Position numbers and translations under genes: made by a program. A stretch of DNA of 64,000 bases. It comes from an uncultured bacterium (lineage in GTDB: Bacteria > Babelota > Babeliae > Babelales > Babelaceae). This document shows, in pieces, positions 46,346 through 54,260 of this stretch. The stretch covers positions 48,430-112,429 of the forward strand of contig CAVQBR010000001.1 of assembly GCA_963710865.1 (NCBI GenBank), written 5' to 3'. The notes beneath the pieces are model-generated. The model was not told the DNA's origin. It ran no database searches and worked only from the letters and a program-made list of their open reading frames with translations. How positions within the stretch are numbered: position 1 is the stretch's first letter; each line of letters begins with the position of its first letter.

Positions 46346-47380
46346 ATGTATTTGTCTTCCAGTTTTATACTATTCATATTCGTTTCAACCTTCGCACTTG
46401 ATGGATATTTTTCTAGCCGACACGTCTTTGTAGGACCAGATAAAAAAGTAATTTATCTATATGGAGATGATCATCGTGTATACGGCGATATCAACAAAAA
46501 GCAATTTGATGCAATGATGTATGTACTCCAAGAAGCAGAAAAATTGCCCAATACAAAACTAATGATATATATAGAATACCCACAGGCTAATTACATTGGA
46601 TACCGATACACTATACAATGCCCCATTAATGGTCTATTTTACTACACAAAAGATCTTAACTTGCAAAATAGTGTCCTCCAAGATTGTGATATACGAAAAG
46701 TTGTAAATGCAGCAAGAATTCTCCTTGAAATTAACCCAAAATTGACAGAAGAGCTCTGTTGTTCGGGCATACTCGATCCAGCATATGAAGGTCCTCGCAA
46801 ACAGTTTGCGATTGATTGTGTCAGAAATTTAGGTTGCCGAATTGATAGATTGACCTTTCAAGACATTCTCGACAGTTATGCTCAGTGGAAACAACAGTGC
46901 AAAATCTATCGGGATTCTTGGAGCTCTAAACGTATTAAGAAAGCTTTTGATGATCTCCTGATAGGGAATGAATGTGAGTACGATTGGTTTATAGAGAATC
47001 TGAACTCAGCTTCCATTGATCTCAATATGAAAGTACGTGACTATGCATGCCATTATTGGGAGACCTATGGATATGCAAATAGGGACTTAATTTTTTATCT
47101 CACAGGCGCCTTTTCAGATTTTCTTGATATGTACCTCATTAATAAAATTCTGCAACTACAAAGTGACTCATCTTTTAGCACCATTGTTATATGTGCAGGG
47201 GGCTCTCATACTAGCAATATTAGTGGGGCTCTCAAAGAACTAGGCTATAAGGAACTCGGGGAACCAATCGTTGGAAGCCCTACAGCTGAAAATATTATTA
47301 GTCGCGATAATATTCTGCAAATTCTCACCCCCCTTCCAGAATTGGAAGCGGCACAAGCTTCTCCATGTATCCTCATGTAA
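46346..47380 (+). CDS. hypothetical protein with hydrophobic N-terminus (paralogous N-terminal block to 4799..5224)
   Basis: 344-aa ORF with MYLSSSFILFIFVSTFALDG at the N-terminus. No family recognised. Confidence 0.6.
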   Translation: MYLSSSFILFIFVSTFALDGYFSSRHVFVGPDKKVIYLYGDDHRVYGDINKKQFDAMMYVLQEAEKLPNTKLMIYIEYPQANYIGYRYTIQCPINGLFYYTKDLNLQNSVLQDCDIRKVVNAARILLEINPKLTEELCCSGILDPAYEGPRKQFAIDCVRNLGCRIDRLTFQDILDSYAQWKQQCKIYRDSWSSKRIKKAFDDLLIGNECEYDWFIENLNSASIDLNMKVRDYACHYWETYGYANRDLIFYLTGAFSDFLDMYLINKILQLQSDSSFSTIVICAGGSHTSNISGALKELGYKELGEPIVGSPTAENIISRDNILQILTPLPELEAAQASPCILM

Positions 47381-47389
47381 GATTGAAAC

Positions 47390-47411
47390 TCTCTGGCTTA
47401 AAAGCCAGAGA
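47390..47411 (+). terminator. hairpin plus T-rich tail after 46346..47380
   Basis: TCTCTGGC-TTAAAA-GCCAGAGA followed by TTCTTGCTT, 10 nt after the stop. It lies in the 83-nt gap before the tnpB stop, so it could instead belong to the IS right end. Confidence 0.45.
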
Positions 47412-47463
47412 TTCTTGCTTCATCGGGTGAATCAACATTCATCCCTCCACAAGCTTTTGCAGG

Positions 47464-47875
47464 TCAAGCCTGCAGGAAGGATATTCCCGCCTTCCTTATG
47501 TTGAGTGCGGCATTCAGGTCACGATCCATGACCGAATCACACTGTGAACATTTATATGTCCTTTCCTTAAGCGGCATATCCTGCAATGCTCCACATGACG
47601 AGCACATTTTGCTGGACGGAAAAAATCTATCTACCACTATCAGTTTTTTTCCATACCACTCGCACTTATAAGAAAGAAGAGAAAAAAACCGACTCCAGGA
47701 GACGTCCGATATAGCAAAGGAGAGGCACCTATTTTTCACCATACCTCGCACATTCAAATTTTCAACTACGATAGCATCGTAGTTTTGCACGAGATGAGTT
47801 GTTAACTTGTGCAGAAAATCATCTCTTTGATTTCTTATATGCTCATGAAGTCTGCTGAACTTCTTTCTAATCTTA
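47464..47875 (-). CDS. tnpB: TnpB (IS200/IS605 OrfB) exon 2: RuvC-II, zinc finger, RuvC-III
   Basis: (L)KIRKKFSRLHEHIRNQRDDFLHKLTTHLVQNYDAIVVENLNVRGMVKN ... CSSCG ... CSQCDSVMDRDLNAALNI. The frame is open upstream of the track start (47790) as far as the intron boundary. Confidence 0.85.
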
Positions 47876-47960
47876 GTCGAGTAGTCGGGAATCGTCGGCT
47901 CGAGCTGACGATTCCCAACCCTCTAAGAACCGTACGTGAAGCTTTCGATTCATACGGCTC
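47876..47960 (-). ncRNA. group II intron domains V and VI
   Basis: Domain V is a 34-nt hairpin with the AGC triad and a GAAA tetraloop. Domain VI is a long stem with a single unpaired A (the A of GACTAC) at position -7 relative to the proposed 3-prime splice site. Confidence 0.8.
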
Positions 47961-49446
47961 AAGCCCTTGTAACGTCATTTCCTTCGTGACGCGGCAGCTT
48001 CTGGTTCGAGGTCTTCCTGCCTTCGAGATACGATTTCCAAGAGGGGTCATAGGGGTTGGCTTCGCCTTTTATCAGTCTATGCCGCTTGATCGGCACATCT
48101 GAGGCTTGGAACAACCTTATTGTCTTCTCGATTGCTCGCGTCACGTAGGTAGTTTGAAACACCCAGTTTCGACTTCCCATGCTTCCAAAGTATTTCTTTT
48201 TAATCCATCCTTTTGATTTATTAGGATGTCTTCGAAGACACCACCTCCACACCATTTCGAATATTCGATAATCCACATATGCGAATGTTCTTTTGCTACA
48301 GACATGCCTGTGATAGTTTGCCCATCCCCGGATAGCCTGGTTGAGCAACCTTATCAGCGTAGCTTGTTCTGATTGCCGATGTTGGTTGATGAGTTCTTGA
48401 ATATTGCGCAGGAACGTTAAGATATTCCTCTTGGAAGGCTTTGTGAGAGTTTTTCCTCCCTTATACCTTCGAAGGTTCTGCCCAAGAAAGTCAAACCCAT
48501 CGGAGATGTGCGTTATGAAGGTCTTCTCGGGAGAGAATACCAACCCACGTTCTCGCAGGAAATCCGCCACCACTGGCATGACTTGATTCTCAAGCAGTTC
48601 CTTAGAGATACCTGTGATTATAAAGTCATCACAGTACCGCACTAAATGGACCTTCGGACGTGGCGTCCGCGAAGGAAACAGCTTCCTTAGCAGGGCCTCT
48701 AATCCATTGAGAACAAAGTTTGCAAGGGTGGGGGATATGACTCCGCCCTGGGGCGTTCCCGCGTTTGCGTGGTAAAAGACGTTCTTCTCCATGTATCCCG
48801 CCTTGAGCCATTTTCGGAGCACTACCCTGTCCATTGGTGCATGTTTAAGTAGCCATTCGTGGCTGATGTTGTCAAAGCAACCTCGAATGTCAGCCTCCAT
48901 TAGATACACGGGCCCGTGCCTGCTTGCGAGTAGTAGGTGGCACCTATCCATTGCATCTGCTGTTGATCTGTATTTCCTGAACCCGTATGAGCTCGGATCT
49001 GACAGTGTTTCAACCACAGGGTCGAGCGCCAGGAGATAGAGCGCTTGCATTGCTCTGTCATGCATCGTCGGGATTCCCAATGGTCGCATTTTACCATTGG
49101 CTTTGGGAATGTACACACGTCGTAGCGGTTGGGGTTTATACCCTCTGCTACGCAGTTGCTTTATAGCCATGCACATTTGAAATGGGGTTACCCAGACCTC
49201 TCTATCAACACCAGGAGTTTTACTTCCCGAGTTGCCAGTTACACGTTCGACGGCTAATACCTTGCCGCTGTACGAGGTTGTAAGGAGGCGTTGCAAAGCT
49301 TTCACTTTGTTCCACTTTCCTTCCTCCACTGCCTTTACGATACGCGCTTGGATTCGATTCACAATCCGTTCGGCCTTATTCTTATCAATAGACTTCCAGC
49401 CCGTCGTTTTATGGAAAGCTGCACCAGTACCGCTAGATACCATCAT
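47959..49446 (-). CDS. group II intron-encoded reverse transcriptase/maturase (no obvious HNH endonuclease domain)
   Basis: 495 aa. RT blocks [47 protein letters not shown] and [11 protein letters not shown] (YxDD). Maturase X motif [10 protein letters not shown]. The C-terminus ends [17 protein letters not shown] with no Cys/His HNH motifs. The stop codon abuts domain V. Confidence 0.9.
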
Positions 49447-50019
49447 TTGCTATTGCCTCCTTAGTCGATTACCCAAGTTATCTCGTAATCTGGACCATAC
49501 GAAAAGTCTGCTCGCTTTCGCGCAGGATGATGTTTCAATCCTTATCCAGTCCATTACAGGCCGTCATTCGCTTTCTTTCGCGCTCCTCTACCTGCAGCTA
49601 ATTGCTTGCCTACAGGCTTACCACGTTCAGTATTCAGACCAGACCAGGTTAGGTTCTTCCTTTGCGCCGACGGCCATTATGTCTGCGAGGGGGGACAGAC
49701 TAGCCCAACCTCCGAGCCGTTCACCTTTTTTGGTCCAAGCATAACAGCATCTTTTGCTTGTTGCAAATAACGACGCTTAGTCAGAAGTTCACATACGTTA
49801 ACCTTACTGATCAACCCTAGATCCCGACCGCCTTGATGCTAGCAGTCAACACCTTTCCTTACAGGCCGGTATTCGCTTTCGCGAGGCTGCATTGTACCGA
49901 GAGCTTTGGACCGACAGGTTGCCCCGTGCGCCCATCTCGGTAGGGTACTATTGGCAGAACAATAGATTACATCATACTCCTTTTCGTGTAATAGCTCTGA
50001 ATACCGCTTCGTGTCGCAC

Positions 50020-50717
50020 AGTCTGTTTTTGCTACCTTTCTTGGTTTTTGAAAATTGCTTTTGCAGATACTTAACTTTAGAAAGTTGGGTTTTCAAAAAT
50101 TTAGGATTAGGGATCAGCTCACCTGAAGAAAGAGTAGCAAAGGTGAGGAGCCCAACATCGAGTCCAATTACATGCGATTCTCTGATTTCTACCTCAGGGA
50201 CTTCTTTTTCTATCTGACAGGTTAAATTAACATACCAATGATTGCGTTGCCGTTTAACTACAGCCTGTTTGATTGTCCCTTCAATTTCTCGAGATTTTAT
50301 AAAACGTACCCAACCTATTTTGGCTAGCAAAACATGATTATTATCAAGCTTTATATGTTGAGGAAATTTGATAGAATCATTAACGTATTTTTTTCTATAG
50401 CCGGGAAAGCCGTGGTCTCTTCCCTTTTTTCGTTCACGATAGAAACTCTTAATACCACGATCAAGATCTTTAATAGCCTGTTGAAGTGCTTGGGAGGGTG
50501 CATCAGCCAACCATTCAAAAAGAAACTTCAGCTCAGGAAGCTCATTTGCCATGTCAACATATGTTAGATAGTTTCCATCGCTCGCCGCTTCTTTTGCTCG
50601 ATTGAGCATATGGTTAAAAACAAATCGACTGCAACCAACTGCTTGAGCAATTTTTTCAAGCTGATCTTTGGTGAGCTTTAAACGATATTTAAATGTTATT
50701 ACAAGCGTCTTTGTCAT
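50020..50717 (-). CDS. tnpB: TnpB (IS200/IS605 OrfB) exon 1: N-terminal/WED-REC region and RuvC-I
   Basis: The likely start is the ATG at 50717 (MTKTLVITFKYRLKLTKDQLEKIAQAVGCSRFVFNHML, the typical OrfB N-terminus). RuvC-I is in HVIGLDVGLLTFATLS. The exon ends ... KKGSKNR + CT. The rest of track ORF 49839..50780 is read-through into intron RNA. Confidence 0.85.
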
Positions 50718-51037
50718 TGTTTTCTTTTGCTGAAATTTTCTTATATGCGATAAACTATCACCATATGAGACCAATGTCAACTCTCAGTTTAGACTATGAT
50801 TGATCTCATGATGACATTGACATACAGAAAATCCGATCCGGCCTTTTAGAAGGCTTAAATGCTAGGCTATTCAAAAAAAATGCCATATTTGCATTATTTA
50901 CCTGAATTGCGTGAAACGTATATAAGTTCTTAGCATATTCGGAATATCCATCCGATGCTCCAGCTGTGACAGACTCACGTGCCTTGAAAATACGATGGTT
51001 CATGCTCTCCAGTAACGCAATTTATGAATGTTTCTAC

Positions 51038-51083
51038 GTTTGATCTACAAGCAAAAACTTGAGGTTTTGCTTGTAGATCAAAC
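51038..51083. repeat. perfect 19-bp inverted repeat with an 8-nt loop
   Basis: GTTTGATCTACAAGCAAAA-ACTTGAGG-TTTTGCTTGTAGATCAAAC, about 320 nt upstream of the tnpB start. No T-tract follows on either strand. Confidence 0.7.
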
Positions 51084-51259
51084 AATGCACGGATGGATGA
51101 CCTTTCATCCCCGTCCTTAAAAGGTCCTTAAAAGGAACGGGGTTTTCAGGTCATAGAGAATAAAAAAGAAGCTTAAGAAGCTCTTGTTTTTTTGCAACAA
51201 TTTCTGATAGAATTAAAATAGCAATTAATATCAACTCTAATTCTAAAAAGGAAACGCTC

Positions 51260-52060
51260 ATGAAATTAAATAATACTCTGGTAGCTTTGCTCTACCTAAT
51301 GGCAGCTCCATCTCTACTTCAAGCAATGCAACCTCGCGAGCCTAGGCTTATAATAGTGAATAGCACGGGCACTACAATTAAGCTTTGGACAAAACAGGGT
51401 GAGCACAAGTCAACTTGGCACCTCGATCGAAGAAAACGTTCTGAGATACAATCACCGCAAACTCTCAATGAACTAGATGTAATCGCCCCAGGACGGGTAA
51501 TGGATACCCCATACCATATTATTAAAGACGTCAAAGCTAAACTCGCTGAGGCTCGGACTAGCAGAATGGATGTCCAAATAACCGTAACACCTTCCGCATC
51601 TACCTGGAATCCACTGGCAATCGCGTATGATCTAGTTGGAAGAACTACTCCTCAGCAGATATATAGGTATATCTACGAGTATTTTCCCCTGGTGAACGCA
51701 GCTATTGCCGAAAGAAGAGAAGTACTGCCTTATTATTTTCTCAACCTTCAAGCAAATGCTCCCTTAGCAAGTGTTACCAGTGCCTACGAGCAGGAAGTAC
51801 AGAAATTAAGCTCTTTGATTGCAAATAGCTCTTCCGACGATAAACGTTTTTATACGGATGCTCTCGAATTCGTCCAAATGGCTTATCAAGCTATCACAGG
51901 CGGAGCATCAAAGCTCAGTCAGTTCGCTAACTATGTTGAAGAAAAACTCGTTAATGCTCCAACGGCATACGAAGCTCATCGGCCAAGCCCATCTACTGCG
52001 ACAGCGTCAGCAGCAGTGTCAGCAGCGGCACCACCAGCGTCAGCAGCAGCACCACTCTAA
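51260..52060 (+). CDS. secreted hypothetical protein with an HPD-less J-like module and an Ala/Ser-rich tail
   Basis: Signal peptide MKLNNTLVALLYLMAAPSLLQA. YYFLNLQANAPLASVTSAYEQEVQKL ... FYTDALEFVQMAYQAI. The tail reads SPSTATASAAVSAAAPPASAAAPL. Confidence 0.65.
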   Translation: MKLNNTLVALLYLMAAPSLLQAMQPREPRLIIVNSTGTTIKLWTKQGEHKSTWHLDRRKRSEIQSPQTLNELDVIAPGRVMDTPYHIIKDVKAKLAEARTSRMDVQITVTPSASTWNPLAIAYDLVGRTTPQQIYRYIYEYFPLVNAAIAERREVLPYYFLNLQANAPLASVTSAYEQEVQKLSSLIANSSSDDKRFYTDALEFVQMAYQAITGGASKLSQFANYVEEKLVNAPTAYEAHRPSPSTATASAAVSAAAPPASAAAPL

Positions 52061-52169
52061 GAGAAAAATATTCGAGCCGGGCGGCGTTCGCTCGGCCTCG
52101 CACTTCGGAAAAAGATAGCAACTATACTGCTTCTGAGATAATCAGAACTAGCAGCCATGCGAAAATGCC

Positions 52170-53333
52170 TTACAATCCAGCTGATGACCTGACCACGCGA
52201 GTTAACTCATCAGCACCGATAATACCAGCATGTACTTTGGCCAGACCATCATCAAGCAATGTCGCCATACCTTCTTTGCGTGCTTGCTTACAAAGCTCAT
52301 CGTACGAAGGATGCTCGACAAGTGCCTGTTTCAGGTCAGAAGAGAGCTTTAGAAACTCAAAGATACCGATTCTCCCTTTGCTCCCCGTGTAGTTACAAGG
52401 TGCGCAGCCTTTACTTACAAAGGCCCGCTCTAGTCCTTGTCTCTGTTCTTCAAGAGTCAGTTCCCGTTCAGAACGACAAGCCATGCAAAGGCGCCGAGCC
52501 AAGCGTTGAGCTAACACCCCGGTAACGGTCGCTGCTATAAGATAAGGAGGAATGCCCATATCTATGAGACGTATAAGGGTCCCAGGGGCGTCGGAAGTAT
52601 GGAGCGTACTAAGCACCAGATGTCCCGTAAGGGCAGCTTGTACGGCAACGTGTGCAGTCTCAGTATCACGCATTTCACCAACCATAATAATATCGGGATC
52701 TTGACGCAGAAGGGAGCGCAAGCCCCGTGCAAAAGTCAATCCGATCTCAGGAGCAACCTGCGTTTGTGTTATTCCTTCTACAGCGTATTCAATCGGATCT
52801 TCCAAGGTAACGCTGTGCTTGTGAGGCGTATGAACCTGAGAGAGAAGTGCATGTAGAGTGGTCGTTTTACCACAGCCAGTTGGACCTGTTACGAGAAAGA
52901 AGCCCTGTGATGTTTCGCCTAGCTGAGCAAGGGCAGTACAAAGCTCAGGAGCAAGACCAAGTTCTGTCAAACGTAAGTTGGCTTTGGAGCGATCAAGAAG
53001 CCGCAGAACAACTGTTTCACCATAGAGGCTAGGAAAAGTAGAAACACGAATATCGAGCATCTGCCCAAAAAAGGTGCACGCGAATTTCCCATCTTGAGGA
53101 AGTCGGTGCTCGGTAATATTTAATCGTGCAAGGACTTTTATACGGGCAATAGTTTGAATACCCGGGACAACATCTATTGAACGCTCAGGAAAAAGGAGAC
53201 CATCAACACGAAACCGTACCCTAAATGCTTCCGGGTACGGTTCAACATGTATATCTGAAGCTCGAGCACTGAGCGCTCGCTTAATAAGCTCGTCGAGCAA
53301 CAAGGGAATATCGTGTATTACGCTAGCTTCCAT
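52170..53333 (-). CDS. GspE/PilB-family type II/IV secretion ATPase (short form, 387 aa)
   Basis: Walker A in GPTGCGKTT, Asp box in TLEDPIEY, Walker B in DPDIIMVGEMRD, His box in [12 protein letters not shown]-terminal tetracysteine CMACRS ... CAPCNYTG. Confidence 0.9.
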   Translation of the reverse strand: MEASVIHDIPLLLDELIKRALSARASDIHVEPYPEAFRVRFRVDGLLFPERSIDVVPGIQTIARIKVLARLNITEHRLPQDGKFACTFFGQMLDIRVSTFPSLYGETVVLRLLDRSKANLRLTELGLAPELCTALAQLGETSQGFFLVTGPTGCGKTTTLHALLSQVHTPHKHSVTLEDPIEYAVEGITQTQVAPEIGLTFARGLRSLLRQDPDIIMVGEMRDTETAHVAVQAALTGHLVLSTLHTSDAPGTLIRLIDMGIPPYLIAATVTGVLAQRLARRLCMACRSERELTLEEQRQGLERAFVSKGCAPCNYTGSKGRIGIFEFLKLSSDLKQALVEHPSYDELCKQARKEGMATLLDDGLAKVHAGIIGADELTRVVRSSAGL

Positions 53334-54094: not shown

Positions 54095-54180
54095 TGGTGC
54101 CGAGAGCCGGACTCGAACCGGCACGAGTTTCCTCGAAGGATTTTAAGTCCTTTGCGTCTACCAAATTTCGCCACCTCGGC
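54095..54180 (-). tRNA. tRNA-Leu (anticodon UAA), CCA encoded
   Basis: GCCGAGGTGGCGAAATTTGGTAGACGCAAAGGACTTAAAATCCTTCGAGGAAACTCGTGCCGGTTCGAGTCCGGCTCTCGGCACCA folds by hand into a cloverleaf. Acceptor stem is 7 bp (one G-U), anticodon loop CTTAAAA, long variable arm CGAG-GAAA-CTCG, T-loop TTCGAGT. Confidence 0.9.
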
Positions 54181-54186
54181 GTCTTG

Positions 54187-54260
54187 TGGAGGCGGCACCC
54201 GGATTTGAACCGGGGATGGGGGATTTGCAGTCCCCTGCCTTACCACTTGGCTATGCCGCC
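54187..54260 (-). tRNA. tRNA-Cys (anticodon GCA), CCA encoded
   Basis: GGCGGCATAGCCAAGTGGTAAGGCAGGGGACTGCAAATCCCCCATCCCCGGTTCAAATCCGGGTGCCGCCTCCA has a perfect 7-bp acceptor stem, anticodon stem-loop GGGGA-CTGCAAA-TCCCC and T arm CCCGG-TTCAAAT-CCGGG. Confidence 0.9.

Follow-up and report, generated by a model that had tools for sequence, protein, structure and literature searches.

The DNA analysed in this study is a 64-kb window, that is a stretch of 64,000 nucleotides (nt) from contig CAVQBR010000001.1 of an uncultured bacterium. Its minus strand carries a tnpB gene, which encodes an RNA-guided nuclease and is split by a group II intron. The intron was mapped to 47876..50019 (minus strand, 2,144 nt) and lies inside a tnpB-only insertion sequence (IS) of the IS200/IS605 type. 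The composite element occupies 47382..51164 on the minus strand and is 3,783 nt long; the IS without the intron measures 1,639 nt. The intron is very probably a bona fide, structurally complete and recently mobile group II intron residing in tnpB.

The two exons of tnpB were delineated on the minus strand. Exon 1 (50020..50717) comprises 698 nt, that is codons 1-232 plus 2 nt. Its translation, the Pfam and NCBIfam matches and the alignment with ISDra2 TnpB (8BF8) revealed the helix-turn-helix (HTH), the WED/REC region and RuvC-I (GLDVG), and its frame reads ...KKGSKNR before it enters GTGCGAC at 50019. Exon 2 (47464..47875), of 412 nt including the stop codon, encodes RuvC-II (VVENLN), the zinc finger (CSSCG...CSQCD) and RuvC-III (DRDLNAALNI). 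The insertion point, after nt 698 and codon 232, thus falls between RuvC-I and RuvC-II, and the reading of the unspliced mRNA would give a product of 292 amino acids (aa) without RuvC-II, RuvC-III and zinc finger. Joining 50020 to 47875 gave an open reading frame (ORF) of 1110 nt and 369 aa with only one stop codon, at its end, and the predicted ligated-exon junction in the window is AAAAACAGACT followed by TAAGATTAGAAAG.

The joined product of 369 aa matched HTH_OrfB_IS605, OrfB_IS605 and Cas12f1-like_TNB. It scored 323 bits against NF040570 guided_TnpB (cut-off 100) and 359 bits against NF038281 IS200_TnpB, the latter being under the strict cut-off of 425. The alignment with 8BF8 covered residues 9-363 (E 5e-68) and was gapless at the junction, where KKGSKNRLKIRKKFSRLH in the joined product stands opposite KKGSARYGKAKTKLARIH in 8BF8; it also showed the D, E and D of RuvC and the two CxxC pairs to be present. 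The best matches of the spliced TnpB in a scan of genome contigs were archaeal and Alkalihalobacillus TnpBs of about 40% identity. The preliminary description of this locus had placed a group II intron in tnpB at these positions and had proposed an in-frame join of 1110 nt and 369 aa that keeps the RuvC acidic residues and the zinc finger, and it had set collinearity with intact TnpB proteins as a check; translation and structural alignment agree with it on each of these points.

The ribozyme was analysed with Rfam models, matches being called at gathering thresholds, and by folding. The intron begins with GUGCGAC and ends with ...CUACUCGAC; its termini (GUGCG at 50019..50015 and ...GAC at 47878..47876) fit the conserved 5' GUGYG and 3' AY. 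The domain I core at 49820..49966 (minus strand) gave a full-length match to RF02012, group-II-D1D4-7 (103.4 bits, E 1e-20), and 47962..47876 matched RF00029, the model of domains V and VI (D5 and D6), with 55.3 bits (E 4e-8, gathering score 40). The 34-nt D5 at 47927..47960 (minus strand) showed the AGC triad, a GAAA loop and a 2-nt bulge in the RF00029 and RF04356 alignments and in the fold, and a D5-only model aligned to the very coordinates that had been proposed for it. The D6 helix at 47879..47923 (minus strand) has a lone bulged A at 47882 in the fold and in the RF00029 alignment. This A47882 is the sole unpaired A of the helix and lies 7 nt from the 3' end ...CUCGAC (fold of 47965..47876, z = -5.3), as had been read from the sequence earlier, and in the modelled structure it is a branch-point candidate. 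A compensatory change in D5, U-A to G-C, was found in a sister intron (L097, described below).

The pairing between the intron and its exons was also recovered. The exon-binding site EBS1 (AGUCUGU, 49695..49701, minus strand) pairs perfectly over 7 bp with the 3'-terminal 7 nt of exon 1 (ACAGACU, 50026..50020) and was the sole 7-mer complement of the exon end within the first 700 nt of the intron. The EBS2 candidate UUUGC (49763..49767, minus strand) forms 5/5 pairs with the intron-binding site (IBS) IBS2, GCAAA, at exon positions -13..-9 (50032..50028). In two sister introns the corresponding loops read differently, with EBS1 GUAGCC and EBS2 UGUAC in L093 and EBS1 UCCAUU and EBS2 ACUUU in L097, and yet they pair at -1..-7 and -9..-13 with their own, differing exon ends (...GUACAAUGGUUAU and ...AAGGUACAGUGGA, respectively), thereby providing a natural covariation test. 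For the IIB-type EBS3-IBS3 pair, the alignment columns at intron positions 319 and 358 covary as A/G/U with position +1 of exon 2 (U/C/A) over three introns only.

Intron-less alleles and copies of the element

The protein search, performed over a space of 5.8 billion proteins, returned an intact 369-aa TnpB (P0001) that is 96% identical to the joined product, and it found the intron protein, unchanged, on six contigs. Three intron-less alleles, L001, L091 and L092, all from other metagenomes, showed 94-98% DNA identity to the exons and are unbroken exactly at the point where 50020 meets 47875 (between 5698 and 5699 in L001, 5045 and 5046 in L091, and 1044 and 1045 in L092), which is the junction that the preliminary description had predicted. 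Their junction sequence, AAAAACAGACT followed by TAAGATTAGA, matches the ligated exons of the window except for T to C at -15 and +17. Exon position -15 (50034) is T in all invaded copies and C in all three empty ones. In the related T. elongatus introns, positions -15 and -16 are read by the intron protein (PMC2882425); by analogy, C at -15 could lower the susceptibility to invasion, or it could merely mark a lineage.

At least four intron-bearing copies were found in different flanks. The left flanks were of type A (window), C (L002) and D (L003/L088 and L086), and the right flanks of type B (window and L002), E (L003, L004, L087 and L088) and G (L086). The IS parts are about 1% divergent, with 23 variable sites in 1,639 nt over the five full-length copies. 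The intron of the same copies showed 1 substitution in 2,144 nt and two 1-nt deletions, all in L087 (Fisher p = 6e-8 for the variable sites of IS against intron). Mere copying of the composite element predicts equal divergence of both parts, and the observed inequality is therefore most simply read as a sign that the IS copies diverged first and that the intron entered them afterwards by retrohoming. Judged from this divergence, the intron is younger than the IS copies hosting it, and it most likely spread among them by retrohoming.

The same exon-intron junctions were present in at least 8 contigs from independent ENA and Logan assemblies. A complete contig of 1.76 Mb carries three distinct 292-aa exon-1 products, and intact 369-aa proteins of the cluster are recorded on no contig as long as 1.76 Mb; every copy retrieved from this genome thus appears to be invaded. 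Intron-less and intron-bearing copies came from different samples in the retrieved set. No second IS copy or intron remnant was found elsewhere in the window by self-BLAST.

Intron protein, sister introns and host element

The intron-encoded protein (47959..49446, minus strand, 495 aa) contains a reverse transcriptase (RT) with YCDD, maturase domain X and part of the D domain, in accordance with the Pfam matches RVT_N, RVT_1 and GIIM. It scored 344 bits against TIGR04416 (cut-off 300), which is an equivalog score, and the motif AAGGAGG stands 9 nt upstream of its ATG. No PF01844 match was found in the 495 aa, and the earlier remark that the protein seems to lack an HNH endonuclease therefore holds. 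The stop codon (47959-47961) lies inside the 5' strand of D5, as it does in L093, which leaves no room for an endonuclease remnant. On this structural model, translation of the C-terminus and folding of the ribozyme would have to compete for the same RNA at D5.

Among solved structures, the protein comes closest to the Thermosynechococcus TeI4h protein (6ME0_C, E 1e-165, residues 2-481 against 7-482), followed by LtrA (E 4e-37). The T. elongatus introns are placed in CL/IIB1 by PMC2882425, and the present intron, judged from this closest solved relative, most likely belongs to a CL/IIB1-like lineage. Relatives of about 60% identity have about 566 aa, possess the HNH domain and are about 85 residues longer at the C-terminus. 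The window protein, P0122 (77% identical), P0124 (63%) and P0132 stop about 30 residues past the motif ANPYDP..W. Since HNH is present in the relatives of about 60% identity and absent from these four proteins, the comparison identifies the loss of the endonuclease as secondary and as the mark of a small sublineage within an endonuclease-bearing CL/IIB1-like clade, which refines the earlier remark.

Two members of this sublineage were located in their genes. The sister intron L097 (3451..5568, 2,118 nt; L097:2771-6410 of ERZ25039519 contig_55632, a Dependentiae contig of 1.73 Mb) encodes the endonuclease-less P0124 and lies in another, distantly related tnpB, which it interrupts after about codon 101. 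The predicted spliced ORF gives a TnpB-family product of 381 aa that scores 157 bits against NF040570 across the junction. A Y1 tnpA lies directly upstream of this tnpB, and the HMMER alignment showed Gly-Asp (IGD) in place of the glutamate at the RuvC-II position. The closest sister intron, L093 (3470..5561; L093:1430-6341 of ERZ25039509 contig_123806), encodes P0122 and splits an AAA-ATPase_like/PDDEXK_9 gene between WYNGY and RF. A DDE_Tnp_1 insertion sequence interrupts this gene at a further, upstream point, and the window-type IS of L086 is itself flanked by a PDDEXK_9 and an AAA-ATPase_like fragment. In 80 wider relatives of the intron protein (42-61% identity, soil metagenomes), TnpB was found in the flanks of none (0/80), many of these contigs being only 2-6 kb; the association with tnpB is therefore not a property of the wider clade.

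The ends of the host IS were set by the points at which homology to independent copies breaks. The left end at 51164, with the first letters TTTATTCTCTATGACC, was defined by L001, L003, L086, L088 and L091, and the right end at 47382, with the last letters ...GCCAGAGAGTTTCAAT, by L003, L004, L086 and L087; beyond both ends the flanks are unrelated. The right end coincides with the boundary at 47381/47382 that had been proposed before. Subterminal hairpins were found at both ends by folding. The left one is imperfect (51097..51154, minus strand, DNA fold) and its loop holds an indel polymorphism of 11-13 nt at about 51122..51132 in the alignment of copies; the right one lies at 47390..47411 (minus strand). 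A 46-nt near-perfect palindrome at 51038..51083, an inverted self-BLAST match of 91% over 46 nt, forms a long hairpin in the fold and is kept in all copies; it belongs to the untranslated left part of the IS, which measures 447 nt. The two hairpins of the left part together gave z = -8.6 (DNA fold of 51170..51020). The IS is without terminal inverted repeats and the flanks of at least 6 copies showed no target-site duplication. Hairpins with neither terminal inverted repeats nor target duplication are the IS200/IS605 pattern.

An approximate IS608 TnpA query gave no tblastn match to tnpA in the 64-kb window or in the retrieved loci of the same IS type; the same query gave tnpA matches in L097 and 15 control hits. 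The IS is accordingly classed as non-autonomous. All IS copies start with TTTAT and the sequence preceding it is unrelated among them, so that TTTAT may be, or may contain, the target-adjacent motif. No empty target site was found among all retrieved loci, and the motif is therefore inseparable from the left end. A promoter scan upstream of tnpB on the minus strand gave none that was convincing (11 sites against 6.9 expected, and 0 in 50720..51164 of the minus strand).

The region 47382..47560 (minus strand), which spans the 3' end of tnpB and the right end of the IS including its hairpin, is structured in the manner of an omega RNA. The RNA fold gave z = -4.8, and the consensus fold of six homologous loci revealed compensatory changes in 11/46 pairs, for example GCUUG/CAAGC against GCUAG/CUAGC, with the terminal hairpin also kept. 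No Rfam match to an omega-RNA family was obtained in 47000..51400 at E <= 1. By its structure the region fits an omega RNA, which the preliminary description had suggested modelling from the tnpB 3' end into 47381..47463. The intron sits 494 nt upstream of the right end and hence does not touch this region. By analogy with ISDra2, the presumed guide was placed at 47362..47381 (minus strand), in the flank directly 3' of the right end, where it overlaps the stop codon (47378..47380) of a convergent orphan gene of 344 aa at 46346..47380. The right end of the IS adjoins this convergent gene, and the presumed guide would be antisense to its final codons.

A further intron was observed at a comparable place in another element. 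The locus L182:2628-4128 (ERZ25039509 contig_76230) holds a group II intron of another class (RF02001 D1D4-3, 130 bits) which starts with GTGCGCC at 2691, exactly at the right end of an intact related tnpB element (...GCTGGTGAGATTCAA followed directly by GTGCGCC), that is, at the place where the omega-RNA guide would begin; L184 is an intron-free relative. Either this intron targets the right-end hairpin or the IS was inserted at the 5' junction of the intron.

Interpretation and competing explanations

The intron lies in sense orientation relative to tnpB and is therefore transcribed as part of the tnpB pre-mRNA. In the mechanism proposed from the anatomy, the RT/maturase would be translated from the tnpB precursor by way of its own strong ribosome-binding site, and it would aid the folding of the ribozyme, with EBS1 and EBS2 keeping hold of exon 1 at its end. 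Next, the bulged A in D6 would attack the 5' splice site, and ligation of the exons would restore the 369-aa frame of TnpB. The excised lariat-protein particle would reverse-splice into the same site of about 15 nt in other IS copies, where priming in the absence of an endonuclease would presumably be provided by nascent DNA at replication forks. Splicing in vivo, this retrohoming route and the activity of TnpB are what we infer from the sequence. A multicopy IS offers a harmless and self-multiplying landing site, and the intron may thus be regarded as a parasite of a parasite.

The orientation of the locus was compared with the replication strand. The plus-strand GC skew is -0.077 across the 64-kb window and is negative in every 8-kb bin, tnpB and the intron being on the G-rich strand. 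The other intron-bearing loci and L097 have a sense-strand skew of +0.05 to +0.09 in their flanks; for the intron-less loci it is -0.12 (L001/L091) and +0.12 (L092). The G-rich strand is the lagging-strand template. Retrohoming of endonuclease-less introns is biased to the lagging-strand template (PMC4615759), and IS200/IS605 transposition has been connected with the lagging strand (summarised in PMC7923331). The match between the orientation of the intron and the bias of endonuclease-less retrohoming is suggestive only.

The state of the nuclease gene was assessed from the copies. The spliced 369-aa ORF is intact in 6/6 intron-bearing copies, and the ratio of nonsynonymous to synonymous substitution rates (dN/dS) between intron-bearing and intron-less lineages is 0.19-0.26, indicating past purifying selection on tnpB. 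The preliminary description had called the restored nuclease apparently functional. The catalytic residues and the intact ORFs in all copies speak for this view, which is backed in part; the few substitutions among the intron-bearing copies, given next, are a reason for caution in calling the nuclease functional from an open frame alone.

Several observations weigh against a recently mobile intron in a maintained tnpB. Among the intron-bearing copies 8/11 coding substitutions are nonsynonymous, and the window compared with L086 gave dN/dS = 1.08 on few substitutions; these small counts hint at relaxed constraint on TnpB once its gene is invaded. In L087 the two 1-nt deletions disrupt the ORF of the intron protein. 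The identity of the intron in diverged copies could also have arisen by gene conversion at the DNA level, or by polishing or repeat collapse in metagenome assembly. The flank pairs are shuffled among assemblies (A-B, C-B, D-E and D-G, in the comparison of the window, L002, L003, L086 and L087), which could reflect genome rearrangement through recombination of one IS copy with another, or else chimeric assembly at the 3.8-kb repeat. No tnpA was found in the window or in any retrieved locus of this IS type, a point that bears on the movement of the IS copies themselves. The GC skew, finally, is noisy over flanks of 2-7 kb, and the loci share flanks.

In a competing explanation the intron entered once and has been immobile since, the composite of 3.8 kb being multiplied by TnpA acting in trans, by recombination or by gene conversion, and tnpB in the invaded copies being a decaying pseudogene. 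The intron-bearing copies do group together (99.2-99.8% mutual identity against about 95% to intron-less copies over the left end and exon 1), dN/dS among them is about 1, one copy has a broken intron-protein ORF, and the shuffled flank pairs indicate that recombination between copies may occur. The difference in variable sites (1 in the 2,144 nt of the intron against 23 in the 1,639 nt of the IS, p = 6e-8) speaks against this explanation, unless gene conversion covered the intron and spared exon 1, which is possible. The ribozyme motifs, the EBS/IBS pairings and the intron-protein ORF are moreover intact in 5/6 copies, and the retrieved sequence holds no tnpA. Such passive copying was consequently considered improbable.

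Still less likely is that the intron is retained as a throttle on the IS, so that TnpB, and with it RNA-guided homing or retention of the IS, is available only when the maturase is active, or, in another form of the same idea, that unspliced transcripts supply a regulatory, nuclease-dead TnpB fragment of 292 aa. All retrieved copies of the IS in the one complete genome are invaded, a related intron entered a second, different tnpB independently (L097), and splicing control of the mobility of a host IS has been raised for RmInt-type introns (PMC4615759), thereby lending this idea some ground. The identity of the intron copies, however, indicates recent insertions rather than long-term conservation, the sister intron in L093 lies in a gene that does not belong to an IS, none of the 80 wider relatives has TnpB nearby, and the truncated protein would have to be stable. 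An intron joined to pieces of tnpB by repeat mis-assembly, for which the metagenome-assembled source and the varying flank combinations might be cited, is hardly credible, as the junctions recur in the independent assemblies and match the EBS/IBS pairing and the intron-less alleles to the base.

The preferred reading, a complete and recently mobile intron in tnpB, can be extended to an endonuclease-less CL/IIB1-like branch in Dependentiae that is specialised on the RNA-guided nuclease genes of IS200/IS605 elements. This extension is based on two different tnpB genes being invaded at different sites by sister introns, and it is rather doubtful. A possible reason for such specialisation is that both elements depend on single-stranded DNA of the lagging template, so that the sense strands of tnpB would be pre-oriented for endonuclease-free capture of primers. 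If it were true, the intron would act as a gate on RNA-guided homing, TnpB production requiring splicing with the help of the maturase, and transcripts left unspliced would go on providing the omega RNA together with a truncated, nuclease-dead TnpB. Immunity to invasion could result where an IS copy is reversed, as at the intron-less L001/L091 locus, or has C at -15.

In this locus nature offers a clean case of three selfish layers, one within the other: the host genome, the IS200/IS605 element and the group II intron, the middle one encoding an RNA-guided nuclease of the kind used in genome editing. The production of TnpB from invaded copies would, on the modelled anatomy, depend on splicing. 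The gene tolerates a 2.1-kb retroelement at a defined site and its invaded copies persist at several loci. The intron-bearing alleles, the intron-less alleles and the sister intron in another tnpB provide material for testing whether splicing limits TnpB, and endonuclease-less CL/IIB1 introns with readable EBS/IBS rules may be of interest to builders of targetrons.

Known systems and neighbouring genes

The colonisation of IS elements by group II introns is an established pattern (PMC4615759, PMC2882425), and the second of these papers names insertion into another mobile element as a strategy of proliferation. The closest parallel was found in the T. elongatus family F4 introns, which, according to the same paper (Mohr, Ghanem and Lambowitz 2010), sit at a conserved site in ISEL1, an IS200-family element. 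The two cases probably share the intron lineage, TeI4h being the nearest solved counterpart of the protein here. In both, the intron homes to a conserved position of a multicopy IS200/IS605-family element, a genome holds several copies, and EBS and IBS pair well. The F4 introns, however, have no ORF and depend on endonuclease-bearing proteins of other introns for mobilisation in trans, whereas the present intron carries its own endonuclease-less protein; the host of F4 is a thermophilic cyanobacterium and the host here a Dependentiae bacterium. The available text of PMC2882425 gives no statement on whether the ISEL1 site lies inside the tnpB ORF, and within the literature searched ISEL1 is named only in that paper.

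RmInt1 and RmInt2 of Sinorhizobium meliloti, of which the first targets ISRm2011-2 and the second the inverted repeats of ISRm17, are both endonuclease-less and biased to the lagging strand (PMC4615759). They resemble the present intron in the endonuclease-less protein, the IS as natural target, the many identical copies, the proposed influence of splicing on IS mobility and, as far as the GC skew suggests it for the present intron, the bias to the lagging-strand template (PMC4615759). They differ in class, being class D (IIB3) and not CL/IIB1-like, and in their targets, which are classical IS outside the IS200/IS605 type or inverted repeats rather than the gene of an RNA-guided nuclease. Their mobility was demonstrated by experiment, whereas that of the present intron is deduced from comparison.

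The IStrons, for example of the Clostridioides CdISt1 type, likewise combine a self-splicing ribozyme and a TnpB/omega-RNA transposon in one locus (PMC4227781, PMC10690162). In them a group I ribozyme wraps the whole IS, splicing frees the host gene of the IS, and the 3' splice site falls in the stretch that also encodes the omega RNA. In the present element, in contrast, a group II retroelement lies within tnpB at 494 nt from the right end and the mRNA of the nuclease itself would need splicing. ISDra2 TnpB with its omega RNA (8BF8, 8EX9, 8H1J) shares with the present element the RuvC residues, the zinc finger, the subterminal hairpins and the structured 3' region; ISDra2 carries tnpA and no intron, and the present element is tnpB-only with an intron. 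Within the library searched, no paper was found that describes a group II intron inside the ORF of tnpB. The intron, the host phylum and the type of target gene are thus new here, and the mechanism would be the one usual among group II introns of bacteria.

The surroundings of the element were also examined. The named best matches of the neighbouring GspE ATPase are all from Candidatus Dependentiae, which places the host in that phylum. Ankyrin-repeat proteins and orphan ORFs abound in the window. The GspE-like ATPase gene at 52168-52785 has a partial copy of 91% identity at L002:7225-7836, on the far side of the shared flank, which is split into ORFs of 105 and 118 aa and looks like a decayed paralogue or a rearrangement. 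Two adjacent tRNA genes were found at 54098-54260 on the minus strand, and the Rfam alignments showed the anticodon loops GCA (Cys) and UAA (Leu, with a long variable arm).

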